DNA of 63,429 nucleotides, filler included, from Folioceros fuciformis (taxonomy: Eukaryota), in the NCBI GenBank assembly GCA_049999805.1. It is 4 parts of 4 records of this genome, joined end to end, with 100 filler letters (N's around TTAATTAATTAA, not from the genome) between each part and the next. Parts side by side here need not be neighbours in the genome. Positions count along the whole stretch, not along the records: positions 1 to 28,824 come from JBNGIO010005394.1; 3 more parts are not named here. One strand, 5' to 3'. Below the pieces are notes generated by a model. It had not been told where the DNA came from. It saw only the letters and a list, made by a program, of their open reading frames with translations, and did no database searches. Shown piece by piece: positions 11,173-56,760 of the stretch (position 1 is the stretch's first letter; every line of letters begins with the position of its first letter). A program made the translations under genes and the position numbers.

Positions 11173-11410
11173 GCATCTAATGTGCTTAATGTTGTCCGAA
11201 TAATCATATTTGCCAAGGCCCTCTATGTAGCGCAATCGAAATTAGAAGAAGCCGCATCTAATGTGCTTGATGTTGTCCGAATAATCACGTTAGCCAAGGC
11301 CCTCTTTGTAGCGCAATGGAAATTAGGAGAAGCCGCATCTGATGTGCTTGATGTTGTCTGAATAATCACGTTTGCCAAGGCCTCTTTGTAGCACAATCGA
11401 AATTAGAAGA
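11173..11410. repeat. 81-bp tandem repeat, about 3 diverged copies
   Basis: Units start with gcatct at 11173, 11254 and 11335 and share atgtgctt.atgttgtc.gaataatca...gccaaggcc. Confidence 0.9.
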
Positions 11411-14400
11411 CTAGTCCTCACCTTTAAGGATGTGGTAATTATGAACCTCGAAAACTTTCGAGTCAAGGTGAAATGGTGTGCCCACCATGGAAATGCGAAG
11501 AGCAAAGAAGTTGCTTCCCTATATTCTCTTCTCTAGTGTCCTATACACCCAATAATAGCCAATGTTCCTTATAGAGGGATGAATATCTTCTACCAAAAGC
11601 AAGCAACTTAACAAGAAAGGAAAAGACTAGCCCCTATCTTATGGCTGTAATAGGCCCTAGGGCATGTTTTTAAACACTTGAAAGACTTTACCCATGGCCC
11701 CATGAGTCTTAATGGTGAAGGGGATGAGTGTATTGTTATACTACATAGGAGAGTATTTTGAGATCTTAGCTATTGCACAACCTTCTATCGTCCATCCCAA
11801 AGGGTTTAGAATAACATGGTCACATACTTGTCCTAGGTTGGATCAATAACAACCACATTTGCAATAAAACTCTTATCCATAAGATCAAAACCCAAAGGAA
11901 AACCACATTAAACAACATGTAGGGGTGATCTCTACATGGGAAGAAGTCAAAACTGGGTCAACTCAAAGGAAAACCATATTAAACAACATATAAGAGTGCT
12001 CACCTCTAAAATACCTCTCCAACAAGGGTAGGGCACACCTTAAAAACATGCTCTCCATCACCTTGTAGACTTTATAGTCTGACATGCTTAACGACCCACA
12101 AAACTACCAACGCGTAAACGTAGTAGTGCCCCAAACTACTATCCCAGAGCCAGGTTTGTATGGTGTTGTAGAGGACCCCCTCCACAACCTTAAACCCTAA
12201 AACCCAAAGAAACAAGGCGGGTGGGAACGGGCTGCAGATCACGTGCCATTAACCCAAGATGTAGTGAGAACATGGATTGTGGTCCTCAGAACACTGAGTG
12301 AGGTCCCAAGGCAAGGTCCCGATGCAGGGTGATAACATTTCAGTGAGAACCCAATCCCGAAATCCACCTTATCGATGCCACTAGACGAGCTTGATCTCAG
12401 GTCTTAACCTTCTTCTGAGCCCTAATAGACATACGGCATGCCAAAGCAAACACTCTCTCACTGTAGCTATTTTAATGGTTTCTCCTAGGGTATCTTCGCA
12501 AATCTTCTCTTTCGATACCTAGTTTTTTTTATTTTTCCTTTGACAAACCTATTAAACTAGTCTTTGCACCAAAGGGGACATGGCTCAACAATCAGAACCA
12601 TGTAGGAGTAGGTTGTGGTTGGCTGGTTGTGGTTGCGACAGTAGGGTTCAGGGTGGAGGAGATGTCACTAAGATGGTTGTAATGGCCACCACTACATTTG
12701 AGGGTAGTTTGACACATTTTTTGTAACATTTTTGTACCTACATTTGTCACAGGTTGTAACATGATGTAATTCTATTCTCATGACCTAGGGTCGAGGCCTG
12801 TAACCGTGTGTTGATCTATCCCTTATACTTATACTGTAATGAAGTACGTTACATGTTAAGTACATCTTGGGTATCATGTGTCTCGTTTAGCCCTTTTTGT
12901 TTTTGCTTCATGACCTTTGGTCTTCCTCCTTCGCTCCCATACCACATTCCAGACTGGCCACTTCTACTGCTTCAGCCTTGGTCATATTTGTGTCCACCAC
13001 AATATTATGCTGTACTGCTTCCTGCTCAACCATATTTGTGTCCACCACAACATCAGGTACGTGATGCTCTTTCGGTGTACCCACGTCCTTCTCTACACTA
13101 GACTTTGTCTCAATAGTTCCATCACCCCTTCCTCTCTTTCCACTACAGCTCTCGGCTAAGCTTGTGAAGTCTCTGTTAGCCTCTTGCTTCATTCTTGCTT
13201 TACATTTGCTTGCTCCATGCATGTCCATCATCCTTGGTGCAATTCTTTCATGTAAAAACCCTCGCGTTACTGTTCTACGATTAACCTACATGCTAGTACA
13301 AATGCCTTGCCCATGTGTAGTCCTCCTCTCCACTCTCACACACTCACAGATGTCAGCAATGAGCAATGAGCAACTCGTTGCCCCATTGTTTGCGCTAGCA
13401 ACGGAGTAGGAGGCTGTAAGGGACCAAGGTAGAGAAAATGGAGCCTGAAATGGCTAGATGCCGAGTGGCTTGAGGGTAGAAAGCCCAAACACTGCAAGGT
13501 GCCCGGTAACAATGGATGGGGGCGCAATCGTGCTTGTTGAAAGGCAGGCACGGGTCCCAAAAGGTTTGCTTGCAAGGTGGTGGCATGTTTTCAGTCGATT
13601 TTCAAGGCATGTGCACAAATGTCCTGTTTGGCCTTGACCCAAAAACTCGCATATGCGTCAAAGGGAACACGTGTAGCCTCTGTTTGTAAAAATACCTAGA
13701 GAGAGGCAACGCACCCCCTCTAGCATGCCATACAAACGAACTATGTCGGAAAGATGAAGAGTTAATTAAGAGCAAAGGCCTAAGGGTTCAGCTTGTCGGA
13801 TGGTGTATTTGCCAATTTAAGACTACGGTTGTTGGCGAGAGTTGAGGTCTTCAACGTGGTGAGAGTTGAGGTCTTCAGCACCACTGACCATAATTTAGGG
13901 TAAGAGTCTATGTCATGCCAAAGGGGACACTCCCTCTCTCTATGTATTTTATTGTTTTCTCTCAAAGTATCTACTAGAATATCCATCCTCCATTTACGGG
14001 AAGTCGACGTCCGGTTTGGGCATCCTTACAAACTGGACACTGCACCAAAGCGGACACAACAAGCACACAGAAGCATACATAGCCTAACCTCAAAAGCATA
14101 GGAACATAGGCTTACAGTTTCAATGTAGTGGAAGCGGTGAATCCCTAGTTTTTTGCAACTCATACCCTATTTTTGATGGTGCAAACTCTTAGCATCATTG
14201 CGAACGTGATTTTTGGAGCTAATCTAATTACTCATATATGTTATGATAAAAATTTACACGTTTAGAATGCCCACAATCACAAGGTTGCAACTCACTCGTT
14301 CTCTGGGCATTGCACGTTCCATGCATTTGCAACCACTCTCTCATTCTCTATGCACCATGCATTCCAGGCATTTACAACTGCTGAACTTTATGCCATGGGA

Positions 14401-15480: not shown

Positions 15481-16086
15481 ACTATCCGACATGCTTGACA
15501 GAGGACTATTTAGGCACCCTTGGGTTGAACTCCAATAGTTGTGGCAAAATATTTGCCAATCTCGTTTTTACTATAAAAATGAGCGTTTTTTAGTGCCTAA
15601 CTTTAGCTCTTGACCTCCTTTCCTCCAGTCACTACGCCTGCTCATCCCACTACTCTCCCTAGCACCAGGGGACTTATGTCACAGGACTCTCCAAGAGTGG
15701 AGCCATCCAACCGACTCTTGGAAATTTTCAGCTATACTGGTGTTTACTAGCTTTACTAATCTGCTAGCTAGATAAGTTGCTTGCTTGGGTCCCATCTTGA
15801 TTACTTAAATTCCAATAGTAGATTAGCTCTAGTAACTCCCCATTAACACTTATGCTATATTCTTCTTGGTGTGCCATTAACTTGCCTCAGGTAGGTTTCA
15901 CCTATTGATCGTCGGCCATTAGAACCATTCTTATGTTTGATTGGCCGGGTTGAAGGGCTTGGGAATTGACTTGAAGGAGGGCTATAAGGTAGTTACTTGA
16001 GGGGTAGTTGGAGAGTTTATAAGTGGGAGCTTAGGCCGTTGACCAAGTGGCTAACTTAAGGGCTAAGGGCTGACATAAAGACTAGA

Positions 16087-16291
16087 TGTTAGGAATTTAA
16101 TCTTACTCACTTACTGTTAATTATAGGGTTACTTATACTAGATTATATGATGAAAAGATCATCTAGTGAACAGGCACCTAGTACACATATATAGACATAC
16201 TTTAAAATCTTTTTGTATTCATTCAATTATTTTATGTTTATTCTCTCTTGCTCTTTTGGTCATGTCCTATTGTCATGTCCGATAATTGTCA
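16087..16291 (+). repeat. 5' LTR of copia element 1 (TG...CA, 205 bp), followed by a tRNA-Met-type PBS tggtatca at 16292
   Basis: Starts tgttaggaat, ends tgtca, immediately followed by tggtatca. First ~100 bp match 22111-22214. Confidence 0.85.
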
Positions 16292-19200
16292 TGGTATCAT
16301 GTCTAAGTTTGCTGACATTGATATCTTGACCGATCATGGAGTTTATTAGGTGATCATTTGCAAGCCTTTATTTACAAACTTTGCCATCGTACACACTTCC
16401 ACTACCTAGCAGGGATGAGAAGCTAAGAATCTAATCTATATGAGCTGATATCTAGACAAGTAAGAAGAGCAGCTCGGAATTCAACATAATTCATCACCTT
16501 CTCCGGATGCTGGCTGAATTTTGTCGAAGACCCCGCTTCCCTTCCTACAAGTCAGAGTTAGCCTAATTTCTATGGATTATGCTACTAATCTAGAATGATT
16601 ATCCAGACAGACACCCAACTTGTATAGAGGATTGCTGTTGTATGTACTCTAAAAGATGCCTAGACGCAAAAACAAGCAGGCCACAAGGCCATCATTTCCT
16701 GGTCAACCCAGACCTGATGGATTGCCTGCAAGATATACAACGAATGGCAACTGTCAGCAACAATCACCATCACAGCCAATTCAATTATAAGACTACGTAT
16801 CGGTGAAATTGACAGATCTTAATAGGTTGGAACAAAAATTGTGAGTTTTGAGTGACTAGTTGTCGCGCCTACTTCTCATTGAGAGATCAGCATCTGCATT
16901 TGCTATAAGAAATTATCTTGAGCGTGTGAGGTTTAGATCACGTCAGGATTTCTCTCGGCTAGATTCTGGATGTTCAACTAGCAACTCGAGATTCCAACTG
17001 TGGTGAAGAATCACAGGCTGTAGAGGGGAAAGGCACAGGCGGATGCGCCTGTTCTGCTTCTGTCCATGTTTTGTGACTTTCCACATCCTAACTGCCAGCT
17101 GTTTTTAGTTAGTTCATTTAATGTTTTATTCCTAACGGGATACCGTTTCGAGAGGGGGTTTGTGGCTTACTTACTTAAGCACCTTAGCACCTCTTCACCT
17201 TAGTTGGTGCCTCCTCCTATCACATATGCCTGTTATCAAATGGTTCTATTCCAGAACTAGCATCCACAACAACCAAAGGAGAAAAGGATCATTGGGCGCA
17301 TGCCAACAGCATATGCATGGCCCTACTCATCGATGGTCTTTCTGAAGACCTCCTCCCCGATGTAGAGTTCCTCACCATGGCAAGTCAAATATGGCAATAG
17401 CTTGCTGACACCTATCAAGTGCGCAATGTCATAACATTATGTGCACTTCGCTTGGAATTCTTTGGACTGAAAATGAAAGAAGGGGATAAGGTACTTACAC
17501 ATTGCAACAAGTTCCGCCACTTGTGAGCTCAACTTGCTGCTGTAGGCACCAAAATGGATGAGATTGATGCAGTGGCTCAATTGCTTACGAGCCTCCCTCC
17601 CAGCTACCAAAATTTCGTATCTTCACATAATGCTCCCATTAGAACAACAAATGTTGATGTTGCTGCTGGACAGGCCTCACTACTCACCCTTGACGGGGTG
17701 ATAGGCGCGTTAAACCAGGGAGAGCAAAGCAAGCTCATGTCAGGGTCTAGATCCAAGTCCAAAGCTGACAAAGTGTTTTCTGCTTCCCGTGGTAAACCAT
17801 TCTAGAGGGGCAAACCAAGAAACGTGCTAGGTACATATCCTCCTTGCCATGAGACTCGCCATGAGGCTAGTTCATCACCTACCAAGCGTCAGGGCACATG
17901 TAACTGGTGTGGTATCCCTGGACACTAGGCGAAGGAATGTCGTAAGAAGAGAGCTGGTGAACCTCAGAAGGCTCCCAAATCTGCATCCACTGCCACTGTT
18001 AGAGAACAACCTACTAAGCCAGTATTAAAAATATTGACTATATGTCTTACCTCCTCTACACATGACAGATCTTCATGGTTTCTAGATTTTGGAGCCACAG
18101 CACATACTTGTTGTGATGCATGTCAGTTCACCAGTCTTCAACTCACATCAAGTGTGGAGCGTGTCTACCTGGGTGATGAACAGAATGACACCAGTTTGCA
18201 GATCCTTGGTCAAGGTTGCTGCAAATTTAGACTGCATGATGAGACTATTCTTACCTTAGCTGATGTCCTGTATGTGCCTCGTATGGCCAAGAACTTGTTG
18301 TCTTTGAGCAAGTTGATGAAGACTCAGCAGTTTCTCCTCCAAGTTTCAGATACATCTTGCTATTTCTATAGGAGATCTGCCCCTTCTGTATGTGTCATCT
18401 GTGCATATCTTGACCAAGATTTATATCTTTTGGACATCAAGTGTATCATTTGTACTTCTCATCAGGCTCATTCTGCAAGTGTAGGAAACCTTTCAACTCA
18501 ACAGCAAGCATTCCTATGGCATGCACGTTTGGGTCATGTGAATAGAACCACACTTATTTCTATGAGCAAGTATGATGGTTACCATGAACTCTTACCATCT
18601 TACCTGAAGGATCTGCCACTCTGTGAGACATGCGCATTGGCTAAACAAAAGGAGCTCCCTTTCCCCAACACCCCAGCTCACAGATCTTCACGACTACCTG
18701 AACTGGTTCACGCTGATATCTCTGGCCGCCTCTAGGTTTCTTCACTTGGGGGGGCAGACTATTATCTAACTATCACCGATGACTACAGTCGCTACACATG
18801 GACATTCTCCATGCATAAGAAAAGTGACACCTTTCCCTTATTTAAGGACTGGTTAGTCATTATGCAACGACAGACTGGTTGCCTCTTGAAGCTGTTCAGG
18901 TCTGATAATGGCTCTGAATTTGTGAACCAAGCTTTTTCCACTTTCCTGGAATCACAAGGCATTATACATCAACTCATTGTACCATACACGCAGCAACAAA
19001 ATGGTGTTGCTGAACGTAAGAATCATACACTTATGGGAATGACAAGAGCTATGCTACTATGGTCAGGCTTACCATCCCCATATTGGGCCAAAGCAGTAGT
19101 CACTTCCACATACATCCTAAATAGATTGTTGACCAGCTCTCTTACAGAAAGCCTAGCTTGCTGCATCTTAGATTATTCGGTTCTAAAGCTTTTACCTACA

Positions 19201-21558
19201 TACCTTCTGAGAAGAGACGTAAGCTTAATAACCGATCTCGCAGCCTTATTTTCATTGGCTACAACGAAACTATAAAGGCTTATAAAATGATTGACCCCTC
19301 CTCACGTCAGCCTGTCCTAGCACGTAGTGTGACCTTCCTTGAACCATTACAACCAGTTACACAATCAGTAGTTTTTGATACATACTTTGGTTCAGATGGG
19401 TCACCTACAAATGTGGATGTCGAGGATGAGTCTGCTGGACATATTTCAATTTATCCCCTTGATGCTGATGGTGATCCAGGTCTTCCCCATGTCCCTCCAG
19501 TTCTCATATGCCTGTACTTGATCCACCATACCAGCCAGATGTTCCTGCTCCAGCCCTAGATCATGATGTAGCCCAAGCATAGTTAGATCCAGATGACTTA
19601 GTCATTGCGGACGATTCTGCAGAGGAGCATAGACCAAATTTACTTGCAGCAGTAGAGGAGGCCCCCTTAGTAGATGTCCCTGAACCAGATGGTGGCCCTC
19701 GACGATCTACTCGCCATCGCCCTCCACCATCTGATTGGCAGCAGCCGAGATACACATCCATAGATTTCAGAAGAACACATTGTTGGTGCTTCCACAACCT
19801 TTATTCCTATTGTCCCACCTGAGCCTTCAACTCTGACAAAAGCATTCACGGGTCCCGATAAGGAAAAATGGAAAATTGTTGTTAATGACGAGTACAACAG
19901 TTTGATGAAGAATGGAACTTGGCATCTTGTCCCTCACCCTGCAAACTGGAAACCTATCACATGTAAGTGGGTTTTTAAACACAAGCTGAATGCAGCTGGG
20001 GAGATTGCTAGATATAAAGCACACTTATGCACTCGAGAGTTTACACAAATTGCTAGGTTGGACTACTAGGAAACATTCTCACCTGTGGTTTGTGCTCAGT
20101 CCATTCGTCTTATTCTTGCCCTTGCAGCTAAGCATGACTTAGAACTCCAGCAGATGGATGTCTGCACAACTTTTCTCCATGGCATCCTTGAAGAGGAGCT
20201 GTACATGGAGGAGCCCGAAGGCTATATTAACCATGAACATCCAGACCACGTTTGTCTATTTGTTAAATGCTTGTATGGGTTAAAGCAAAGTACAAAAAGA
20301 TGGTACAAACGCTGTGACAAAGCATTAAAATCCCTTGGTTTCCGATAGTGTACAGCAGAGTCCAATGTGTATGTCCTACAAGATGGAGCCGATTATGTTC
20401 TCCTAGCACTGTATGTAGATGATGTTATCCTGGCTGCTAATAGCACTGAACTCCTTGCCCGAGTCAAGGGTCTTCTTAGCTAGACCTTGGAGATGACAGA
20501 TAGTGGTGACCTTTGGTTCTGTTTAGGCATCCAACTACTTAGGGTTAGGTCTGAACGGCTTTTGATCATTCATCAACACAAGTACATAGCAGAAATTTTG
20601 CATAAGTTTAACATGCTTCAAGCACATCCCGCTAGTACACCTGGAGCCGTTGGGACTAAGCTTACCCATTATGAATGCCCCATGACTGATGCTCATAAGG
20701 CAGATATAGCTGATGTCCCTTATTGTCATGCAGTAGGTAGCTTGATTTTTGTGAGCAACTAGACTCACTCTAACATTCAACACTCGGTTAGTACAGTCTA
20801 CCAGTTTATGGAGAACCCAGGCCGAGCACACTGGACTACTGTAAAGAGGATATTCCAATATTTACGAGGAGCTCACATCTATGGCCTTTGTTATAAGCAT
20901 ACTGGACAGTCCCCACGTACCTTGCATGGCTTCACAGACGCAAATTGGGTCTTTCGACAGTGACTCTAGGAAGAGTCTCTTGACCTCAGTTTTTCTCCTT
21001 GCACAGGCTGCAGTCAGCTGGAGCTGCAAGAAGCAAACCAGCATTGCATTATTGAGTACTGAAGGAGAATATAAATCCCTATCAGATGCAACTAAGGAAA
21101 TCGAATGGAAAAGGTCTTTTCTTGCTGATATCGGACAAGAGCAATTAGGTCCCACTCACCTGCACTACGATAACCAGTCAGCAATCGCTCTCGTCTCCAA
21201 CCCTCGGTTCCATGCTTGTACAAAACATATCGAGATCCAGCATCATTATGTCAGAGATGCTGTTGAGGGGGAATTACCAAGGTTTTCTATGTTCCCATAG
21301 ATGATAACACAGCAGACATTCTGACCAAGGCTCTTCCCAAAGACAAGCATTACAAACATATGGAAGGCCTTGGGCTGATTGATTACCAACCCTACTTTCG
21401 CAAAGAGTAACTTACAAATGGGGGGGGGGTGAGGCCTTAGACCTTAGATGTGGAGATGCTACTCGTTTTCTTTTCTCTGTTTTTCAAGCGCCTGTGTGCA
21501 CCGACAGGGAGGGCTAGCAGCTACACCACTAGACAGGTGGATGAATCTCAACGCCATT

Positions 21559-21861
21559 CTAATCACCTGGATACTGGTGCCCTTCCTCCTCCTGCAGTAT
21601 CTTCAACAGACCAAGCAGCCTCTGCGCTTCCTGAAGAGGTCTGAGCAGGCTAGCTTCGTCACCAGTATCCTCTGGAGTTTCTCCTTCCCTCCCAGGCTTC
21701 GTCCAATAGAGTTTTATGTTGAAAAGAACTTTCCAGCCTTTGACCCTGATGGCGGCGCCAGCTATGTGGGTTTCATCCCACTCCTCTTTAGCAGGCTTCT
21801 TCTTGGCAAACTGCTCCTTCTGTGTCCTACGCTTGGACCTCTTCGAAGGCATTGTGCACAC
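21559..21861 (-). pseudogene. Antisense accessory ORF remnant in the 3' region of copia element 1
   Basis: 100-codon K/E-rich ORF between the pol stop (~21410) and the PPT (~22101). Its C-terminal LLRPLQEAQRLLGLLKILQEEEGHQ aligns with the antisense gene at 24600-24688. The frame is interrupted by a stop upstream. Confidence 0.5.
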
Positions 21862-22100
21862 CAGGACAAACGCTTACAACTTGGACTCCATTAAAGATGC
21901 AAGTGATGAGAACCTAGTATGCAGATGCGAGATTTGTAACAGTCTCCATTATTCTCCAGCTCACTCGTCCGTGTTTGGTGATGATCGCCGCAGTTCAAGT
22001 TCTTTGTGTCTACCTCTGCCTCGTGACTGTCCCGTGTCTTCTTCATTGATGACCCCGTCTGTAGTCAGTTGCGCCCTAACCTCCCTAAGCTTGTTTCGCT

Positions 22101-22220
22101 TAAGGGAGGGTGTTAGGAATTTAACCTTACTCTCTTAGGGTTAATTATAGGGTTACTTATACTAAGATTATATTATGAAATGATCATCTAGTGAAGAGGC
22201 ACCTAGTGCACATAGGACAT
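22101..22220 (+). repeat. PPT (taagggaggg) and truncated 3' LTR of copia element 1
   Basis: LTR copy begins at 22111. I count about 8 substitutions and 1 indel in ~103 bp versus the 5' LTR, after which similarity stops. Confidence 0.85.
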
Positions 22221-23850
22221 AAAGAGGACTTCTACGCTGGAAGTGCCAAAGGAGGAACTCACCATGTTGATCGAAGGGATGGATGCTAAGACCCGAAATG
22301 GTTGGCAGACTAACAAGATGGCATAGGCCAAGTGGAAGTTGTTCACTAACATTGTGTTGGTTCTAACATGTTGTTAAAGGATGTATTTCTCAAACTCTTT
22401 CTTTCATTTCTTATGGAAGGTTAAGCAAGGGACCCATTCAAATTGGGGGGCTGTTGGGTGCTTATGAGTACCATAGGGACAAGTTGATGCACCAAAATCA
22501 AAAGGACAATGACAGGGAGAGGCACACTCACATCTACACCTATCTGTTTCATTTATGGTAGGCCCATGGAATTAGCCTCTTTTAAGTTAATTGATGGATG
22601 TGAACGAGGAAATGATTAGCAATCAAGAGTGAGTCTCCCTACTACAGGAGCTGTATGTAGGAGCTGGAGGATAGACTAACCATTGTCGAAGGGGAGCTAT
22701 TGGCTGCCTAAAAGCAATGGGTCCTCCATACCCAAAAGTTGGGAGAAACCAAAACTTTGGAGTTGGAGAAGGTTTTGGGACGGTTGAGGTTGGCAAAGGA
22801 CAAGTGTTAGAAAGAGGAAAACCACCATTAGCAAGTCATCCACGAGATGCTAGTCACCAAGAAGAGGAGGTTCCAAACAGATTTTGGGTGGCAACAATAT
22901 TTTCATGAAGCCATGGCAAAAGGAGGCAAGAAAAATTGTAACCCTCTAAACCCAATTGTTGGAGGTCACCACGGAGAGGGATACCTTGAGGGAGAGGTTG
23001 CGATCTGATCAACCAGGTTTTGAAGATTGTTGTATCAAAATTAGGAGATGCAAGCCCACCTTTATGGGAAGATCACCAATTTCTCTTGTGAGATGAGTGG
23101 GCTAGTCAAGAGAAGAGTGGTGGGACCTCACGACGATGATAGAGAAATGCTGGAGAATTTGAGGCCCAAGGAGGGAGACTTTGAGTGCTCAGACAAGGAT
23201 GACAAAGAGTCAAAATTAGCATGGGAGGTACCCTCGCCAAGGGAAACTTTAGTCCCTCCTCAAAAGGGGCAAGGTGGATCTCATAAGGGGACAAATGGAG
23301 GAGAGAACCATGTAAGCAGCATGCCAGTACCCAAAAAGGTGGCACCTTGAAGAGTTAGGAGGCAATAGGCCACTAAATCCAAGAGACCAACCATGATCTA
23401 TTAACCTACAATAGTTTAATAGGTTGATAGTACTTGCGGTGATAGGGTTAGTAGTTAGTATGGTTTAATGCAAGGGAAGGTAAGCGGGGGTATGACCACG
23501 AGCACAAGAGCACACAACAAGAGGAAAAAAGAAAAGCGATTATCTTCATTGAACAAAAAGGATGAAATATATACAAAAGTAAGTATGTTTGTTGTAACTG
23601 ATTATGAAACTACTAATGTATATTTAACTAACTCACAAATCACTATTATTTCCTTTATGCCTTCTTAGTTGAAATAATCAGCATAAAGGGCAATATCGGA
23701 AATAGGTAAAGTATAAATTAAACTTTAAACTTTAAATCCTGAAACGAGTTCCTTGTGAAATCGGGTTTGAATGCAAATACGGCCAGTCTGGTCACATTTG
23801 TTCCTCGTGCCTACTACACTTAGTATGGTTCAGTTTCTGTGATAAAAAAC

Positions 23851-24688
23851 ATGATGTCTCACCATTCCCACTTGGAATTGTGCAATCTCGCTGCTACCCT
23901 CCTGTTGGCCTGGTTCGCAATCATCCTGTTGGGCATCTTGCTACTAGAATGTAGGCATTGCTATCTGTTGATGGAGCTCTCGACTAAGACGGCAACAAGG
24001 GGAGTTGAATGTATCCATTGTGGTAGGGAATGGATCCCTACCACCAAGTACTCCTGCCGCCAGTGGACTCTCCATAGGATGATATGTGAGCATCCAGGTA
24101 CTGACGTCGATGCTCTCAAGACAGAAGAGGAGCAAGCCCAGAAGGATTGGGCGAAGGTCAGATTGAAAACAATGACTCCTACTGGATTTAAAGTGCAACC
24201 TTATGATACTCCTCCACAGGTATGCTTTGACAATGTGAATCTGAGCAAACAGGGGAGACTATCCAAACATGAGTACCAAAGGGAAATGGAAAGGATATTC
24301 CCAGAAGAAGATTGGGAGCTGGATTACAATTATACATACAGGATTACCTCTGAGTGTGCTAGGCAGAAACTGAGCAAGGAGGAGAAGATGGTACTGTTAC
24401 GTGCAACCAAAATACCTTGTAAAAATGTAGATGCTCCCTCTAGAGGAGGAGTGCGTAAGAGGGTTAGATACGATGATCTAGATGAGGAAGGGCAAGCGCT
24501 TACTTGTACATTAGGCTTCATCCACCTTGCCCCTACCTCACTTATGCATTCATTTATGCCTCTGATAAAGTTCTGACCTTCTCTCTCTTTGTCCTGCAGC
24601 ACTGCTAGGAGAATTAAAGAAGACTGAAGAACTGCTGAAAGTCTTGAAAGGGAAAATCAAAGAGAAGGGCTATCATATTAGATGCTGA
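23851..24688 (+). CDS. Putative spliced antisense accessory gene of copia element A: N-terminal transmembrane/signal anchor, C-x2-C-x17-H-x3-C motif, C-terminal amphipathic helix
   Basis: ATG at 23851; LAATLLLAWFAIILLGILLL; CIHC...HRMIC. Candidate donor gtaaga at 24455 and strong acceptor ctgac...ctctctttgtcctgcag at 24599 give LLGELKKTEELLKVLKGKIKEKGYHIRC*. Converges on the pol stop at 24710. Confidence 0.55.
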
Positions 24689-24709
24689 GACATAGTGACT
24701 AGAGAAAGC

Positions 24710-24966
24710 CTAATGTGCAGTGTCAAGCTTGTGTGATGCTGCTATAAGCCTGAGACCTGCTGTTGTGGTGTGCTTAGCATGTAGAACTCTCGGTAGAGCC
24801 TTTGTTAGAAGGTCCGCTATGTTGTCACTTGTAGGCATGTAGTGTACCTCAACTTCACCTGCATCAACACCTTGACGAATAAACTGGTGAGTAATTTCTA
24901 TATGTTTCGACCTTGCATGAAAAACAGGGTTTTTTTAAAGTGCAGTAGCAGATTGGTTGTCACACC
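24710..24966 (-). mobile_element. Ty1/copia RNase H 3' end (element A, outermost layer of the nest)
   Basis: CDNQSATAL..NPVFHARSKHIEITHQFIRQGVDAGEVEVHYMPTSDNIADLLTKAL...*, cut off at 24966 by an LTR. Confidence 0.85.
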
Positions 24967-26159
24967 TGAAGGACCGCAACAAGGAGCTACATGATGAAGG
25001 AGGAGAGGAGGAGGCAAGGAGGAGAGGAGAAAAGAGGTCACACTCTCACACAGAGTCTCTATAGCAAGGGAGCTCAAGGGGGTATTTATACCCTTTAGAA
25101 GAGCTCCCTAGGAAGCTTCACAAGAAGCGCATAAGAAGCTGCGCAAGAAGCTTCATACAGATTATCTTAAGCTAATCTAAACTAATGGTACTTAACTAGA
25201 CACTAATCTTAGACTAAACACATTAGTCTAAGCACATTGGGCTTTAATAACCCTACAACCTCCCCCTTAAAGGCCAATTTACCTTTATAAGAGAGTGGTC
25301 TACCTCATGCCCATGAATGTCCGAGCTTGTGCGAATTGCTCCGAAGAGAGCCCCTTGGTAAGAACATCTGCAGGGTTATGACTGGTGTGAACTTTGACAA
25401 GCTGTACCCTCTTGTCTTCTAACACCTCTTGAATACAGTGATACTTTACTTCCACATGTTTGGTCTTCGCATGAAACACTGAATTCTTCGCCAATTGGAT
25501 AGCACTCTGGCTATCACAGTGCAACACTAGCAGCTCAACCTTGATCCCCAAATCTCCCACTAAACGAGCAAGCCACATGGCTTCCTTGCACGCCTCAATC
25601 ACCGCAACATACTCGGCCTCTGTGGTAGATAGTGTTATGCACGATTGCAAACGAGATCGCCATGAGACTGCCCCTCCAATGCACATGAAGACATAACTTG
25701 ATGTGGACCTCCTTTTGTCCATATCCCCTGCATAATCAGCATCCGTATATCCCACGACAAATGCATCTTCACTACCAAAACATAAGCACAAAGCTTTCGT
25801 ACCATTCAATTACCTCATAACTCCTTTCACTGCCTCCCAATGCTTCCTGCCAGGGTTTGACATAAACCTGCTAACTTTTCCCACTGCAAAAGCAATGTCA
25901 GGACGTGTAGCAATAATTGCATACATCAAACTCCCTACAGCTGAAAAGTATGGAACCTTCTCCATTTCAGCTTTGTCCTTCGTAGAGCTTCGGCAATCCT
26001 GGTTTGAAAGTTTCACATATGGAGGCAACGGCGTACTCAATACCTTCCCCTTCCCCATATTGAAACGTTGAAGCACCTTGTTAATGTATTAAGTCTGAGA
26101 CAAGTACAAAAAACGCTTTTGTCTGTCTCGACAATTACACATGCCAAGAATATGGCTTG
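24967..26159 (-). mobile_element. Ty1/copia 3' part (element B, Tnt1/Tork-like): RT end, RNase H, PPT and 3' LTR 24967-25257
   Basis: VPYFSAVGSLMYA, TRPDIAFAV, GYTDADYAGDMDKRRSTS, LSTTEAEYVA, CDSQSAI. PPT aagggggagg is followed by an LTR tgtaggg...ccttca containing tataaata. Confidence 0.88.
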
Positions 26160-28824
26160 TGTCAGAGTTCTTGGAAGAACATGGTTAATTAATTTTCAGG
26201 AAATTGCAACAAGGGTTTTTAAGGTGTTTTCCTGAAACGTCGTAACTATTCCTTAAGTGGCTATTCGCTTAATTATGACATAAACGAAACGCTATCCCTA
26301 ACGGGGTTTAATTTCCAACACGCCCCCGTAAGCGAATCGGCCAGGTTAGCGACGGAAACGCAAGAGCAGAATGGGAGAAACACTCCTCGTCATTCTGAAC
26401 CTGTGCGTCCTGGCAATCGCAATATACATCCTTCACCAGCAACAGGGAAAGAATGCGCAGCCTGGCACGACACAACCACAGCACGAGCGACGCAAAGCAC
26501 AGCATAATGTGGAGAAGACGTGCACGATGGAGCAGAGATGGACAGCAGCGGGATGGAAAATCCAGCTGATGTGCATGCTGTCACTGAAGCGTAAAATAAG
26601 AATTGCAGGGGCTGAGAAAACGGTGGAAGAGCTCCAACTGAAGCATCAGCTGAAGCAAGCAGCAGGATGTCCGCTGCCGAAGACTCCAAGACGTGCAGCA
26701 GAACACCGAGGACTGCAGGAAGATGGCGATTCAATCTGAAGGAGAGCTTCATCCGCCAAAGTCTGCAGTCGCACAGCTGTCCAAGGATCACTTAGCTCGC
26801 GAGAGAGAAATCTGTGACTCCCAGAGTAGCCATATGTCGCGCATGTAGAGAGGAAGGCAGAAATTTTGTGAGAAGATCAGCAGGATTCTCCTCTGTAGGG
26901 ATATACTCAATTTGTACTTCCTTTTCTTGCATAGAGTGGCGAATAAAATGGTGATGCACCTCGATGTGCTTAGTTCTCGCGTGAAGCAATCGTGGACATA
27001 TTGTCACACGAGATCACAGTGGGTTGAGATGGCAGAAACCCTAAACCACTAAGGAAACTGCGTTCCCAAATGGCCTCCTTGGCTGCTTCGGTCAAGGATT
27101 TGTATTCCGCTTCCGTCGAGGAGAGGGCAACACTAGCTTGTTTCTTTGCAGCCCAGTGCACAGCAGAATCGGAGAGAAGAAAACAGTATGCGGAGATGCT
27201 TCGACGAGCATCAGGGTCGGTGGCCCAATCAGCATCGGCAAAATCACACAGAGCCTGATCCCGAGATCGCCCCCGGAAGCAGAGCCCATACTGTTGAGTG
27301 CCTTTCAGGTAACGCAAAATCCGTTTAACGGCACCCCAGTGCTCCTTTCCAGGATTGTCCATAAATTGAGAAACGACACTAACCGAGTACTGGATGTCCG
27401 GGCGAGTCCAGCAGCTGATGTAATTGAGACAACCAACTGCATGGCGATAGGGCACTGGAGACATAGCTTGCCGATCTGCATCAGTCTGAGGGCACTGATT
27501 GCGAGAGAGCTTAGCACCAACTGGGCCAGGAGTAGAAACAGGCTTCGAAGAATCAAGATGAAATCGTCGAAGAGTCTCTGCAATATACTTAGCCTGATGG
27601 AGAAAAATGGTACGAGAGGCTGGCTCACGAACCAACTGTACCCCCAAAACGAAAGTAAGTGGACCGATGTCTTTCATGTCATATTTGCTGTGCAGCATCT
27701 GCTTTACCCAAGCTAAAAGTTCAGGTTTGTTTGAAGCCAGAATGGCATCATCGACGTACAACGCCAAAATCACCAGTTTACCATTCTGGGAGTACAAGTA
27801 GACATTAGCATCACCAGGATTTTGTATAAAGCCGATGGACTTAAGGTATTTGTCGATGGCCTTATACCACTCCCGTGCTGACTGCTTTAAACAGTAGATG
27901 GTCTTCTTTAGTCGACAGACCCAATCTGGGTGTTCAGGATCCGCAAAGCCCTCGGGCTGCTGCATGTAAATATCCTTTTCTAACTCGCCATACAGGAATG
28001 CTGTACAGACGTCCATTTGTTGAAGATCCCATTCATAGGCAGCAGCAAGAGCAATGATCATGCGTATAGATTGGGTTTTCACAACCGGACTAAAGGTTTC
28101 AGTGAAATCCACACCAGGAACTTGAGTAAACCCACGAGCAACAAGGCGAGACTTGTATCTGGAAATCTGGCCTTCAGCGTTAAGTTTGTGTTTAAATACC
28201 CACTTGCAGCTAATAACTTTTCTGCCTGCGGGAAGAGGACAGAGCTCCCAAGTGGAATTCTTGATGAGTGAATTATATTCATCTTGAATGGACGGCTGCC
28301 AGTGATGTTTATCAGGTCCTGTAATGGCCTCGGTATATGTGCGAGGTTCGAGCTTAGAAAAGGGTTGCTCAGCAGAATCCAGCAAAGCAACGCCAGCTCT
28401 TGAACGACGAAAATCAATTGAGGCATATGGTGGCTCCACCCACTCTGAAGGAGGTGGACGAGACCGACGAGGATATCTTGATTCAGTGGCATCCATGGAT
28501 GGTGGAATTACCACAGGAATTGTAGCATGGGAAGGCTCCTCAGACGGTATAGCAGGTGAAGCATCTGGAGGAACATTTGAATGGGCATCAGATGTGAAGG
28601 AGGAGGTAGGTATACCCGTCGCGGCTTGATCCTGCTCAGATGCATGTGGCTGATCTAAAACATCAGCCATACCAACTTGGGGACCAGCAATTTCCCTTTC
28701 TAATTGTGGTAAGTAAGAGGAGTCCTGTTCTTCAGACAAAACTGCAGATGTATCTGGCCCCAAGGAACCAGGTACAAAAGTAGCAGGGGAATCATCTGAA
28801 GGATACTCTGAAACATCTTCATCC
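26160..28824 (-). mobile_element. Ty1/copia 3' half (element C, innermost layer): RT-RNase H, 3' extra region, PPT and 3' LTR 26160-26320; runs into a gap
   Basis: 597-aa ORF with CKWVFKHK, RYKSRLVARGFTQ, QMDVCTAFLYG, LYVDD, DADWA and SSTEAEY; a small frameshifting deletion near 26985; PPT gggggcg then tgttggaa...ctgaca. Confidence 0.92.
26371..26739 (+). CDS. Putative antisense accessory ORF of copia element C (122 aa, N-terminal hydrophobic anchor)
   Basis: Intact ATG-initiated ORF MGETLLVILNLCVLAIAIYILHQQ... filling most of the space between the 3' LTR/PPT and the pol stop (26792), antisense to pol. Confidence 0.5.
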   Translation: MGETLLVILNLCVLAIAIYILHQQQGKNAQPGTTQPQHERRKAQHNVEKTCTMEQRWTAAGWKIQLMCMLSLKRKIRIAGAEKTVEELQLKHQLKQAAGCPLPKTPRRAAEHRGLQEDGDSI

Positions 28825-29706
28825 NNNNNNNNNNNNNNNNNNNNNNNNNNNNNNNNNNNNNNNNNNNNTTAATTAATTAANNNNNNNNNNNNNNNNNNNN
28901 NNNNNNNNNNNNNNNNNNNNNNNNGCGGGGGAGGTCCAGAGAGAGAGGCGTGCTTCTTCTCCGTCTGGCTGGCAGGCGCCAGGGCTCCGGGGGAGATTCC
29001 GACACCCGGCCACCCTGGTCCCTTGGTAAGAATACCCTCCAGGCGGGGGCGGGCGGCCCTGTCTCGTCTGAACGGAACCGGGGACGGGATCGGGACTTGT
29101 TCACTTCTCCATGTACCGAAACCATGCGACCAACACCTGGAAACGCCACGGAGTCCAAGAACAAATTGTGAAAATGTTTCCGCCGTAGCTCTCGCGTGTG
29201 CTTGTTCTTTTCTGGTGCTAGAACATGCGTTAAACTACAGGTCTGAACTACAGTCCTACAAAGCCAAGTAGTGCGGGAAGTTACATCTTCTAGCCATACA
29301 CCTGTCGTCAAAATGAAAGTTCAACAGCTAGGGAGTCGGGGCCACGCACTCCCCGTCTCACATGTGGCCCAATTTGTTGTGACTACTCTTGTTGTTGTGG
29401 TTCCTTTTCCTTCCCTTTCCAAGGCAAGGAGAGAAGAAGAAGGAGAAGGCTACTAGAGCTACTTTGAGCACTTGTTCCGAAGATCAGGCCTTCCCTTTCC
29501 ACACCCATCTAAGTGCCCATTTGAGCAGAGGCTGTTCAATCCTAGAATTCTTACAAACATATGTGGCTTTGGCCTGAAGTATTCGGAGTTTGGTCCATCC
29601 CCTTTGGTCTCACCACACCACACTTCTGCAATGTGCCTCTTCCTTTGATGCAAGGCGCATTGATATGCAAACAAACGATGGCCCTCGTCAACTTCAAGTA
29701 CACAAC

Positions 29707-30303: not shown

Positions 30304-31576
30304 TCATGTTGCTTTGGCCACAGTGGAAGGATGCTGCATGAGCTTCTTGAGGACGACGCTCCGCGCTCGGTGTGTGCTCTGCTCGCACGTGCTGACGTGG
30401 TCCGCAAGGCTCTCCAGCTCCGCGATGAACCTGTCCTGCTTGTGCTTGATCTGGCCCACAGCGGTGACCAGGGCGAAGGGCTCCTCCCGCTCCTGCGCGA
30501 ACCGGACGTTGCGGGCCATGGAGTTGATCTCGTTCTGGAGTTGGTTCACCAGAGCCTTGATGTTGTCTAGGTCACGGATGGCGATGTAGGTGCCCCAGTC
30601 CGCCGAGTCCACCACGCTGCGGCTGGCGGCCAGTTCGTCCTCGTACTTGGTCCACAGGGACTTGAACCAGCGGCCCATGGACTCCATGGGGAGGGCGGAC
30701 AAGGTGGAAATCCCTGCGACGATGGTTGGGGAGACCAGCACCGCGGCCACCACGGCGCAGATGAGCACCGCCGCGCAGGTGGCGGCCAGGATGATGGTGG
30801 AAACCTTCATCCATCCGCGCACGTGCTTCAGCTTCTTGTCCAGCTTCTTCTTCTTGCGTTGGAGCTTGGTCTGCATCGCCTGATGCTGCGTGTAAACCGC
30901 TTGAAACTGCTGGTAGAATTCTTCGGAAAACGGGTTGGCAGCCTGCACCAGGGGTCATTGGCAAATCAAGGCAAAGCATGGCAAAGCGAAGCAGCTCAGT
31001 GACTTTGACTAGTCAAGTCTGAATCACACGGCAAACAAAAAAGATACCATTCCATGCATGTAATTCAATTCAATGTCATCGGAACCATGGAATCAGCACC
31101 TCCATGAAGTTGGTGAGCTCCTTCAGCACACGGTGGCATTGCTCCTCGGTAGGATCACCGGATTCCGGCATCAAGTTGATGGCCACCTCAATAATCATCT
31201 GGTTGTCGCGGGCCTGCTTAATGCACTTGTCCAAAACGTGGCAGAAGTCCAGCACAGCCAGACTGCTGTCGAAGTACTCTGTCACCAGCTTCAGCAGGTG
31301 CTTGTCCGCCCATACGTCCTCCTTGTACTCCAGGATAACCTTCATAACCTCCTGATCCACCTCCAGAAGTGTGCTGGTCACATCCTTCAATGACTCGAAA
31401 GTCAATCCTGTGGAATCCGCTCCTCTCGCCACCGAGTTGATGGCTTTCCCTGTCCTATTCTTGAGCTCTTCATCGAAGTTCTTGACATCAGGATCGTCGC
31501 GGCACAGCTCTTCGAACTCTGACAGATCAAGAGGGAGCACATCGCTGCTCCTCGATTTGCTGAACGTTTTCCCCAT
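30304..31576 (-). CDS. DUF677/UPF0496 (At14a-like) protein, 371 aa, 2 exons (31576-31100, 30942-30304)
   Basis: MGKTFSKS (N-myristoylation-type start), ELCRDDPDVKNFD, LVTEYFDSSLAVLDFC, NPFSEEFYQQF, hydrophobic hairpin VSTIILAATCAAVLICAVVAAVLV, GTYIAIRDLDNIKALV, RARSVVLKKL. Phase-0 GT-AG intron. Confidence 0.92.
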
Positions 31577-32412
31577 GATCCTTTCCACACTGGACGTACC
31601 AAATAACGCCTGACAGTGTAGTGTGCCACTTGGTGAAAAGCAGGAGCGAATCGGATACCAAACTCACTCCGTCACAAGAGATACATCTCATTCACCGCAA
31701 CTCTGCAACACATGTCAAGCACTAATCCTGGCGTTCCAAGCTTCACTAGTACTACCATGAGCGGCCTCGCCAACCTTACCATGTACTGCGCTTGTACATG
31801 TCCCCCACATTGTGTTTCATATTCAAATTCCACTGGCCACACACATTATGCAAAGACCGCGATCTTCTTGGGGAAACGCTCTGCAACTTCCGATTCAGTC
31901 GGACATGGATGCTGATCAGGAGGCTAAGATCTCACTTCCCATATGCTCTCCCAGCCTGCACAGCCTTTCCTGTACTTGAAGACTTGGTGGATTTGCAATT
32001 ACGGCCATGATGTCCTACATGCAGGCAAGTAAAGCAGACTGTATTGCATCACATCAAATATTCCACATTCCAGAGCTCAAACTCCTGCTACCTACATGCA
32101 GTCACAGGCACTTAGCCTAGCCCCTGCTTCTCCTTCCGCTGCTACATGCTTCCAAGGCCCTGGCGTCCTCGTCCCCGTCCCCATCCAGCCCTCTGCTGAC
32201 CTCACGCGTCGGGGTGGATTTCTCTTATCAACAGCTACGATGCTGTCAGTCCAATGTCCTGCAGCCGCACACTAACTAGTTCAACGTTCGACGACTGAAT
32301 TCGCAGCTAGGAAGTGGATTGAAATGCGGGTGGGGACTGTACTGAATTCCATCGGATGGATCAACCTGATCATGCAAACCAGCCATAGCCGGTGGGAAGC
32401 TACTGGGAACAA

Positions 32413-56000: not shown

Positions 56001-56760
56001 ATGCGCATCAACGCTTTAACAATTTCTTGGGCAAGTAAACAGATGCAGACAATCTGCACATCTTCAACCGAGGCTGAGTATGCAACAACAACCCTAGCTG
56101 CGAAAGAGATTCTATGGATCAAGCAATTTCTTTCAGGATATCAATGAGTCACAATCAGAACCAACTGAGCTGTTTTGCGATAATCAGTCTGCCATTGCAA
56201 TGACTTATAACCCAATCTTGCATGCCAAGACGAAACATGTGGAAATTCAACACCATTTCATCCGTCAGACCGTGGCCAACAAGCAAGTGATTCAGGTATA
56301 TCAGCATAGCAGGGAATACAGCAGATCTCCTGACCAAGGGTTATCCAAATCACTTCATGAGAAACATGTAGCTGCAATAGGGCCTTTCAGCAAGGATTCT
56401 TATCTTAGGCTCAAGCGTGAGGGGGAGCGACTCAATCGCCCGTGACTATTAGCCATCACACATTCTCTTAAGCAGCATCCAAATTTCAAGGCTTGCGAGA
56501 TCGGATCCATGGTGAGGGGGAGTGTTGGCGCACCGCGCTTTGGGGTACCGCCGACATACACCGCGGACCGATGCACAATGTTTTTAGGGCACGTTTCGAT
56601 TTACCCTGCTTAAGCACACATAATAGTAAATATCACAGTAAGTGTAGTTACGAACAGTTAAACTGCCCAAACCGAATAGCAGTTTATACTTTCCTATATG
56701 TGGCCATCAGCCATAATGATCGATGTTCTTTTCATGAGAATCGTTCTCTCCGTTTTCACA
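53038..56760 (+). mobile_element. Decayed Ty1/copia element (protease end, integrase, RT, RNase H, PPT, 3' LTR 56523-56760)
   Basis: LWHCRAGH, LRTDNGGEY, MFIGYS, QVDVKTAF, LYVDD, SDADWAGD, SSTEAEY, KHVEIQHHFIR. PPT tgagggggag then tgttgg...ttcaca. Multiple stops. Confidence 0.92.

Follow-up and report, generated by a model that had tools for sequence, protein, structure and literature searches.

Antisense open frames in the 3′ spacers of Ty1/copia elements of Folioceros fuciformis, possibly independent extra ORFs of the eORF-3′R kind

A review covers the antisense ORFs that retrotransposons can carry between pol and the 3′ LTR (PMC7264820), and examples of this aORF-3R or eORF-3′R kind include maize Grande gene23, rice RIRE2, Silene Retand and Phaseolus PvRetro13 (PMC7264820, PMC11963269, PMC6317226). 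The elements of the Retand survey are described with spacers of 2.9–6.6 kb and ORFs of more than 600 nt, often with a Transposase_28 domain (PMC11963269). The REXdb survey, which includes an eORF-3′R category, reports extra ORFs of at least 250 codons in 582 Ty1/copia elements from 45 groups (PMC6317226). Antisense, non-coding or copy-number-control RNAs are also reviewed, the cases being apple Mdoryco1-1 and Arabidopsis AtRE1, with their antisense promoters, and Drosophila micropia (PMC7264820).

Here we describe a locus of Folioceros fuciformis (GCA_049999805.1). The analysed DNA, called the window below, comprises 63,429 nt including filler; it is made of 4 joined parts, and positions 1 to 28,824 come from JBNGIO010005394.1. 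The interval of interest consists of convergent Ty1/copia 3′ ends from four insertions (1, A, B and C). Element 1 lies on the + strand, and the other three form a nest on the − strand, with C inside B and B inside A. This order follows from the junction sequences together with matching depth steps and contig breaks. A single-copy spacer (22215–23590) separates the convergent elements, and one contig of depth 9 covers 22258–23590 with 1 difference.

The distance from pol to the polypurine tract (PPT) is long in element 1 (700 nt), A (about 890 nt) and C (471 nt), and each of these spacers carries one antisense open frame that occupies much of it. The preliminary description of this DNA had placed opposite-strand frames 3′ of pol in the same three elements, and the distance from the stop of the frame to that of pol is indeed 148 nt in 1, 21 nt in A and 52 nt in C. 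Long spacers are not obligatory: the PPT of B comes 42 nt past the pol stop, so that B has no spacer ORF, and the spacer of a further element, D, measures about 85 nt. Overall, that earlier observation was partly confirmed and its interpretation partly supported, in that antisense frames do occupy these spacers; a single lineage-specific, membrane-anchored accessory gene is not supported.

Element 1 is bounded by a 5′ LTR of about 100 nt (16087–16189, +), found as a direct repeat of the 3′ LTR (22111–22214, +). The pair is 91% identical over 104 nt, and contigs connect 22208 back to 16186. Its decayed gag-pol (17527–21410, +; pol stop 21408–21410) contains several stops and frame breaks, with Pfam matches in the order Retrotran_gag_2, Pol_BBD, gag_pre-integrs, rve, SH3_retrovirus and RVT_2. 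The spacer, as read from the sequence (21411–22110, +), ends in the PPT ttaagggaggg. Frame o1 runs antisense to the element (21559–21873, −), with 104 codons stop to stop and 97 aa from the ATG at 21852. Its predicted product has a basic N-terminus and a Leu-rich C-terminal helix, and no transmembrane (TM) segment (Kyte–Doolittle 19-residue maximum 0.86). The sense strand of the spacer is likewise open (148 and 142 codons). Because o1 contains no TTA, CTA or TCA codons, we read the longer sense frame (148 codons) as a shadow of o1. By composition this sense frame does not resemble coding sequence, its scores being reached by 372 and 290 of 816 chance ORFs.

Element A ends in a putative 3′ LTR of 228 nt (23591–23818, putatively −; termini TGTAGTA...TACAACA), delimited by contig breaks at 23590/23592 and by depth. 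Arithmetic on depth bins gives a summed depth of about 290 for its last ~95 nt, where single-copy DNA has about 10. In a single sample, two runs each gave one contig connecting 23686 or below with 24792 or above. The spacer read from the sequence (23819–24709, −) would measure 891 nt with an LTR start at 23818. Beyond it lies a pol remnant truncated by the insertion of B (24710–24966, −; stop 24710–24712), which comprises the RNase H C-terminus and has one internal stop.

Frame oA (23851–24576, +) is antisense to A and ends 133 nt from its pol stop; it encodes 241 aa from the ATG and spans 250 codons stop to stop. The product would begin with a TM-like segment, followed by CxxC...CxxC and a charged region. 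A separate frame, overlapping oA by 8 nt, is an open run of 39 codons that bears a helix (LLGELKK...; 24569–24688, +). The preliminary description had given A a single ORF with both features. Its stop, at 24688, is where it was said to be, 21 nt from the pol stop, but that frame has only 39 codons and no ATG, and the TM-like start and the helix belong to two different frames (23851–24576 and 24569–24688).

Element B contributes a 3′ LTR (24967–25257, −; from sequence and depth), with TATAAAT on its sense strand at 25084–25090, and a pol fragment with the RT C-terminus and RNase H (25300–26159, −), whose boundary near 26159 was set by a depth drop and loose contig ends. Its family is very high-copy, the summed LTR depth reaching tens of thousands. 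Within the RT of B sits the 3′ LTR of C, of about 160 nt (26160–26320, −; from sequence and depth), followed by the 471-nt spacer (26321–26791, −; from sequence) and by pol with linker, RT and RNase H (26792–28823, −; stop 26792–26794; RVT_2 4.6e-68), which has one frame break near 26985 and ends at the N run at 28825. Contigs matching C pol have about 5 times the single-copy depth and differ in 3–6 letters. Pol itself is often faced by long antisense frames as well, such as one of 223 codons at 27045–27716.

Frame oC, antisense to C, has 129 codons stop to stop (26350–26739) and 122 aa from the ATG at 26371 (26371–26739, +), with a TM-like N-terminus. The hydrophobic N-termini claimed earlier for A and C are real (Kyte–Doolittle 19-residue maxima 2.73 and 2.45); TM-like starts are frequent in the window, at 11 of 62 ATG ORFs of at least 90 aa. 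The kinship proposed for elements 1 and C also held. They have a common PPPS(D/E)W..SIDFRR linker, their pol is 53% identical over 377 aa (tblastn), and the passage from PPT to LTR agrees, with cgcttaagggaggg followed by TGTTAGGAATTTAAC in element 1 and cgcttacgggggcg followed by TGTTGGAAATTAAAC in C.

Each spacer yielded one non-random signal, and in each case a different one: frame length in A, coding-like composition in element 1 and three-base periodicity in C. It is worth stressing that about a dozen tests were applied to three frames, each of which passed a different one, and this weakens every single P value.

The strongest case is oA. No mononucleotide shuffle and no dinucleotide shuffle (0 of 2000 each) reached 250 open codons, and stop triplets on its strand have an ordinary density (46.7/kb), yet none is in frame across 750 nt. 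Among the six frames it has the top score. Its composition resembles coding sequence only mildly, with 25 and 28 of 300 chance ORFs reaching its scores. Three-base periodicity is weak (chi2 14.7, P 0.16), language-model recognition is low (1747), and an AF2 single-sequence fold is confident in the first helix only (mean pLDDT 44). Among relatives of A at 80% identity or more, the summed depth, again by arithmetic on depth bins, is about 26–35 over oA, against about 82 at the pol end and about 290 at the LTR end. Most relatives with both ends of A do not carry the oA stretch, which makes oA subfamily-specific or fast-evolving. Most likely, oA is an antisense extra ORF of the already known eORF-3′R / aORF-3R kind, carried by the element and genuine now or until recently.

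For the spacers as a set, we tentatively favour independent antisense extra ORFs of the eORF-3′R kind in copia 3′ spacers, with at most one or two of the three being real. Against this explanation, the 250-codon threshold of the REXdb survey is reached by oA alone, and then only when counting from stop to stop. Under it, antisense transcription would start in or beside the 3′ LTR; in A, a TATAAAT 132 nt upstream of the oA ATG is a candidate start signal. This transcript would be convergent with the genomic RNA at its 3′ end and, in A, would encode a small Cys-containing protein with an N-terminal anchor. Another possibility, proposed for ORFs of this type, is that the RNA rather than a protein is active, through dsRNA/siRNA or copy-number control.

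A second explanation, which we regard as rather unlikely, is that all three frames are non-functional. They would then be runs driven by chance or composition in decayed, stop-poor spacers and chosen post hoc, and the helix would reflect Leu/Glu/Lys-rich stretches in register. The lengths of o1 and oC fit this well. They are matched on the antisense strand in 262 and 115 of 2000 dinucleotide shuffles of the respective spacers (615 and 367 of 2000 on either strand), and such runs occur in 2302 of 4576 random window segments of equal length for element 1 and in 949 of 4710 for C. The spacer of C has 14.5% A on its sense strand and stop triplets depleted on both strands, at 17–25.5/kb, roughly half the window's density of 40.5. 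Several frames are open in it, on both strands, among them a sense frame of 133 codons in frame with pol. The length of oA speaks against chance, as does the composition of o1, the top scorer among its six frames: of 300 chance ORFs matched for length, 1 reached its position score and 2 its codon score. The periodicity of oC (chi2 29.3) was reached by none of 300 chance ORFs and none of 30 presumed non-coding chunks, and no tandem repeats account for it. Short spacers, as in B and D, also argue against this explanation.

We conclude that o1 may be another real antisense extra ORF. By contrast with its periodicity, the composition of oC does not resemble coding sequence, its scores being reached by 84 and 191 of 300 chance ORFs, and this frame is indistinguishable from a side effect of a spacer poor in A and in stops.

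Searches of Pfam and a word-indexed protein collection returned no homologue of o1, oA or oC, and the frames contain no Transposase_28, gag-like or other Pfam domain. For oA, 1.84 billion representatives gave no credible homologue and the PDB nothing usable; the Atlas, searched with oA and oC, gave no homologue. The lack of homologues counts against the favoured explanation and for chance frames.

It is improbable, in our judgement, that oA does not belong to the spacer of copia A as such. In one variant, most of oA would fall within an LTR of ~930 nt that starts at 24524, after a better PPT (gaggtaggggcaagg); in another, the 228-nt piece would serve as 5′ LTR to an independent + strand element with oA as its first ORF; a captured foreign or host fragment would be a third. 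The PPT from 23819 upward is indeed weak and the one at 24525–24539 better. Moreover, TATAAAT (23712–23718), the PBS-like TGGTTCAG about 8 nt past the piece, both on the + strand, and the ATG at 23851 follow the canonical order of 5′ LTR, PBS and ORF, and a paralogous contig matches 23592–24407 only (110 differences, 39 gap letters) and stops short of the pol end. However, single-copy DNA borders the 228-nt piece at 23590, the very place expected for the 3′ end of a − strand element, and no other LTR lies between it and the pol stop of A. A multi-copy contig connects the pol end to the LTR end in that order (short side 35–39 nt), oA has no gag-like or other Pfam domain, and the window contains no second copy of the piece.

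As for similarity between the frames, comparison of the four spacers by tblastx and blastn gave no hit better than E 0.049, and shuffles reached the Smith–Waterman scores in 97 (o1–oC), 310 (o1–oA) and 303 (oC–oA) of 500 cases. The best reading of these comparisons is that the three frames are mutually independent and do not represent one conserved gene. The sole exception to this lack of similarity is an amphipathic stretch of 26 residues, of borderline significance. The helix peptides at 21574–21648 (−) and 24602–24676 (+) are, as reported earlier, identical at 9 of 25 positions as written, and at 10 of 25 at the best offset.

Taken alone, this pair withstands shuffling. At least 9 identities were reached by 19 of 1000 shuffles, the Smith–Waterman score of 40 between o1 and the helix frame of A by 1 of 500, and the match ties for first among 705 open runs of 30–50 codons in the window. 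Family-wise across three spacers the control fails, with at least 9 identities in 47 of 200 shuffles and at least 10 in 11 of 200. Across the six frames of the window, the helix peptide of element 1 finds 5 further matches at 9/25, including one at the same place on the opposite strand, and nucleotide identity beneath the helix is 35/81; like the family-wise count at 9 identities, these figures agree with chance. Matches by codon position are 9/27, 19/27 and 7/27 for positions 1, 2 and 3, and such an excess at position 2 is the pattern expected from protein-level rather than DNA-level similarity.

The preliminary description had seen in elements 1, A and C a copia lineage with one fast-evolving antisense gene, combining an N-terminal anchor and a C-terminal amphipathic helix; on this reading the gene would by now have diverged past ordinary detection. 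In its favour, besides the pairwise helix score and the position-2 excess, both helices lie at the extreme C-terminus near the pol stop, the frames of A and C begin 33–50 nt from the LTR and cover over 80% of the spacer, and the pol C-termini are about equally similar (A–C 31/58; A–element 1 34/63, in two pieces; element 1–C 53%). This shared gene is nevertheless decidedly improbable, as o1 and oC are dissimilar although their elements are demonstrably related, element 1 has no TM segment and C no matching helix (140 of 500 shuffles reach the score of oC against the helix frame of A), that frame has no ATG and is not the one with the TM-like start, TM-like starts are common, the family-wise helix control fails even at 10 identities, and D has a similar pol end but a short spacer. 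With products lacking detectable similarity, inconsistent architecture, o1 and oC lengths within chance and no homologues, the comparisons do not support a shared accessory-gene system.

Among known systems, the env-like eORF-3′F of SIRE (Maximus) resembles these frames as an extra ORF 3′ of copia pol that often has TM-like segments and is very heterogeneous between families, but it is described as a sense-strand ORF of at least 250 codons (PMC6317226). Ours are antisense, and the sense frames in the spacers of element 1 and C are not coding-like.

HTLV-1 HBZ-type retroviral genes, an analogy drawn in PMC7264820, share the convergent antisense position at the 3′ end and a promoter in or near the 3′ LTR. 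Element A repeats this layout with its TATAAAT in the LTR-like piece upstream of the oA ATG. The likeness is one of layout only, here known from DNA alone, and there is no sequence relation to HBZ. Mdoryco1-1, AtRE1 and micropia offer a parallel in antisense transcription at the 3′ part of the element, for which a protein product is not needed (PMC7264820). Their transcripts were measured, whereas our frames are read from genomic sequence.

The hosts here are Ty1/copia, with spacers of 0.47–0.9 kb, frames of 97–241 aa and no Transposase_28, unlike the named aORF-3R examples, which, with the Retand survey, we take to be Ty3/gypsy. What our frames have in common with the described aORF-3R / eORF-3′R elements is the position between pol and the 3′ LTR, the antisense orientation, the lack of likeness to known proteins and high divergence between families (PMC7264820, PMC11963269, PMC6317226).

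The preliminary description had proposed a single membrane-anchored antisense accessory gene common to elements 1, A and C, three of the Ty1/copia insertions. The observations behind it largely held: the antisense frames and their distances to the pol stops are as described, and the helix peptides were confirmed, as were the TM-like starts in A and C and the relationship between elements 1 and C. For A's ORF the account was wrong on one point. The TM-like start belongs to a 241-aa frame (oA, 23851–24576, + strand), but the helix lies in a separate 39-codon run (24569–24688, + strand), which has no ATG, is in a different frame and overlaps oA by 8 nt. The sequence features are real and the three-element system is unsupported, as the frames have no mutual similarity beyond a borderline helix. 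Our tentative reading is that these are independent antisense extra ORFs and belong to a known kind; oA would be genuine, o1 (the antisense frame of element 1, 21559–21873, − strand) perhaps as well, and oC (that of element C, 26371–26739 from ATG, + strand) is doubtful.

The window is plant nuclear DNA with ten N runs and at least five Ty1/copia insertions. Copia elements are marked by an RVT_2-type reverse transcriptase (RT) with the integrase upstream of it. In element 1 (+ strand), Pfam recognized gag, a protease barrel, integrase and RT in Ty1/copia order (gag, Pol_BBD, gag_pre-integrs, rve, SH3_retrovirus and RVT_2). Its direct TG...CA LTRs (16087–16189 and 22111–22214) are 91% identical over 104 nt, and its pol, which several stop codons and frame shifts interrupt, ends at 21408–21410. 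The spacer of this element, i.e., the stretch from the pol stop to the PPT and 3′ LTR, is 700 nt long; its last bases form the PPT ttaagggaggg, after which the LTR opens with TGTTAGGAATTTAAC. In B, C and D, only a PPT and an LTR start are visible.

A 1.4-kb stretch of single-copy DNA separates element 1 from a nest on the − strand (24710–28823), in which C sits inside the RT of B (at ~26159/26160) and B inside the RNase H of A (at 24966/24967). This nesting places three copia 3′ ends in line; the 5′ parts of the nested elements are missing past the N run at 28825–28924. Element B has its LTR at 25257–24967 and its pol stop at 25300–25302, 42 nt before the PPT, and its RT is cut by C at ~26159. 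The B family (24967–26159) is extremely abundant, with a summed contig depth of tens of thousands as against ~10 for single-copy DNA. Element A, cut by B's 3′ LTR, retains pol at 24966–24710 and is known as copia from these last ~85 residues alone.

Element C comprises a 3′ LTR (26320–26160), a spacer (26791–26321), a pol stop (26792–26794) and pol up to the N run at 28825, all on the − strand. Its pol matches RVT_2 at 4.6e-68 in Pfam, and the pols of B and D were found as tblastn matches to it. Elements C and 1 are related: they have in common a PPPS(D/E)W..SIDFRR linker, a PPT/LTR junction of cgctta..gg followed by TGTT(A/G)G, and 53% pol identity. The C family looks young. Contigs of its copies (26292–28800) reach ~5x single-copy depth and differ from the window in only 3–6 letters, and an indel between copies at ~26984 falls on the sole frame break in the pol of the window copy. 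A 223-codon open frame (27045–27716, + strand) lies antisense to C's RT; on the strand opposite pol, these elements often have long shadow frames.

The best-surviving alternative, which we nevertheless regard as unlikely, is that o1, oA and oC are all products of chance. We compared their lengths with 2000 dinucleotide shuffles of each spacer. The length of o1 was reached on the antisense strand in 262 shuffles and on either strand in 615, and that of oC in 115 and 367, respectively. No shuffle reached the length of oA on the antisense or on either strand. Mononucleotide shuffles gave 205, 54 and 0 of 2000 for o1, oC and oA. Runs of such length were also present in same-length random segments of the window (2302/4576 for o1, 949/4710 for oC and 523/4369 for oA), a background that includes real genes. 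The spacer of C is poor in stops (17–25.5 stop triplets per kb vs. 40.5 window-wide). Its sense strand contains 14.5% A and is open as well, for 133 codons in frame with pol. In the oA stretch, stop triplets are about as frequent as usual (46.7 per kb), but not one of them falls in frame across 750 nt. Among the three frames, only oA is clearly longer than chance.

Composition points to a different frame. Models trained on the Pfam-supported coding pieces of the window put the true frame in first place for 15 of 19 chunks withheld from training. By these models, o1, oA and oC each came out at the top of the six frames, oC by a slim margin. When compared with 300 length-matched chance ORFs from shuffles, the position and codon scores were reached 1 and 2 times for o1, 25 and 28 times for oA, and 84 and 191 times for oC. 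Three-base periodicity was strongest in oC (chi2 29.3), a value reached by 0/300 chance ORFs and 0/30 presumed non-coding chunks. It was 20.1 in o1 (2/300 and 1/30) and 14.7 in oA (P 0.16), with a median of 22.7 for coding chunks (n=16); the measure is noisy, rising to 19.7 in single-copy DNA in a sliding scan. Tandem repeats as the source of periodicity were ruled out, as the spacers contain none, and Rfam and tRNA scans of the region left the spacers empty. Each frame passes another test out of about a dozen, so the individual P values have to be discounted.

Sense-strand frames were considered too. In the spacer of element 1, a sense frame of 148 codons is complementary to o1 exactly codon for codon. 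Since o1 has no TTA, CTA or TCA codons and its sense counterpart does not look like coding sequence, we consider the latter a shadow of o1. The sense frames 21448–21891 (element 1) and 26393–26791 (element C) were rejected as env-like ORFs, as they score like chance ORFs.

It is improbable, in our estimate, that oA is part of another unit or of the LTR. Left of A's pol stop, an 891-nt stretch is followed by a 228-nt LTR-like piece (23818–23591, − strand, TGTAGTA...TACAACA). The piece stops precisely where contigs change from repeated to single-copy DNA, its final ~95 nt have ~25–30x single-copy depth by arithmetic on depth bins, and two runs of one sample each contain one contig that links it to A's pol end. 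From this edge, the depth and the linking contigs, we infer that the piece is A's 3′ LTR. The PPT of A is poor and there are + strand signals by the piece, namely TATAAAT at 23712–23718 and a PBS-like TGGTTCAG; together they may leave room for other readings of it. Both o1 and oC lie on the opposite strand between the pol stop and the 3′ LTR (the eORF-3′R or aORF-3R position). With an LTR start at 23818, this holds for oA as well; the alternative start is 24524. Contig depths hint that most relatives of A are without the oA stretch at an identity of at least 80%.

The single diverged gene of the preliminary description appears quite improbable. When the four spacers (elements 1, A, B and C) were compared by tblastx and blastn, no match had an E below 0.049. 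Smith-Waterman scores between the frames were reached by 97/500 (o1–oC), 310/500 (o1–oA) and 303/500 (oC–oA) shuffles. An alignment of element 1's spacer with that of C showed no match past the pol end; a 14-nt island in it was judged to be chance.

The helix is the exception. Between o1 and A's 39-codon run, the Smith-Waterman score of 40 was reached by 1/500 shuffles and was joint top among 705 open runs of 30–50 codons in the window. In a family-wise test that took in all antisense runs of at least 30 codons in the three spacers, at least 9 identities occurred in 47/200 shuffles and at least 10 in 11/200, and the helix peptide of element 1 also matches at 9/25 in five other places of the window read in six frames. 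Identities fall mostly at codon position 2 (19/27, against 9/27 at position 1 and 7/27 at position 3; 35/81 nucleotides); what is common is a hydrophobic/polar pattern rather than DNA. We regard the likeness as borderline.

If there were one gene, its transcription would come from the side of the 3′ LTR, and its small product would be membrane-anchored, with an amphipathic helix at the end; all that survives of it would be the helix, in element 1 and A, and the anchor, in A and C. Copia would then have its own equivalent of the antisense genes of Retand/Grande and of retroviruses. That elements 1, A and C form a related group whose spacer frames descend from one ancient, very fast diverging antisense gene is most doubtful of all.

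Searches for relatives of the three frames gave little. At E up to 10, Pfam yielded only sub-threshold noise for o1, oA and oC, with no Transposase_28 (PF04195), and a word-indexed protein search among candidates of similar length returned no homologue. A phmmer match of oA (E 7e-4 among 1.84 billion representatives) was discounted, being built from 11 short repeated stretches. The PDB search with oA found no relative; in the Atlas, neither oA (best score 0.84) nor oC had a usable match. The single-sequence AF2 model of oA has a mean pLDDT of 44 and is confident for the N-terminal helix only. A metagenome scan with C pol gave one locus at 23% identity, which was of no use. Of 6 listed sequencing runs, 2 contain the stretch, and no RNA run was listed as containing it. 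A run guessed to be RNA provided 5 contigs, all on or adjoining element B's repeat. In another run (X3, 16000–28800), C>T (690 places) and G>A (691 places) account for nearly every difference, the pattern expected from bisulfite-treated DNA; this run could report methylation of the region of elements 1, A, B and C.

Elsewhere in the window, the fifth copia, D (+ strand, ~53.3–56.5 kb, within 53295–57256), has its PPT/LTR start at ~56513–56527 and a spacer of just ~85 nt. About 350 nt past this start, a + strand frame (56873–57256) encodes a PHD finger (Pfam 6.8e-11; KDM5/CHD4-like PDB matches), which may be a host exon or tied to D; N runs flank the region. A 1558-aa uninterrupted ORF (43444–48120), rich in Ser, Arg and Glu and with no Pfam match, probably encodes a disordered product. 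It adjoins a DUF677/ROH1-like/BPS1 gene cluster (30307–31663, − strand; 34721–35404 and 49602–50933, + strand). Tandem repetition was seen at 11173–11415 (three copies of an 81-nt unit) and at 59149–60304 (a ~630-nt duplication with 92–96% identity and an N run within).

The present value of the analysis is chiefly negative: what looked like a three-element system turns out to be a nest of insertions that are unrelated, and the case illustrates how stop-poor spacers and shadow frames can mimic accessory genes. A real antisense gene in copia, above all in the young C family or in the A subfamily, would offer a compact system for studying the function of such a gene or of antisense RNA. To our knowledge, the extra ORFs of plant LTR retrotransposons have been catalogued and their function is unknown; the well-studied antisense ones are in Ty3/gypsy elements. 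Our literature search on copia and antisense ORFs surfaced no such description, and we do not claim that none exists. The env-like ORF of SIRE is a sense ORF downstream of pol, whereas o1, oA and oC are antisense.

Antisense ORFs located between pol and the 3′ LTR have been described as a class, which in the available portion of one source includes Grande, RIRE2, Retand and PvRetro13 (PMC7264820). Those of Retand, according to excerpts of another, are long and mostly carry Transposase_28 (PMC11963269), the mark that Pfam (E up to 10) did not find in our frames. As far as the accessible text of the REXdb survey goes, eORFs of at least 250 codons were scored by position and orientation, such eORFs were present in 582 copia elements from 45 groups, and SIRE's sense ORF is the only extra ORF named as characteristic (PMC6317226). 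Under the length rule in that portion of the survey, o1 (104 codons) and oC (129 codons) are too short, and oA would qualify just barely, by its 250 codons from stop to stop as against 241 from ATG.
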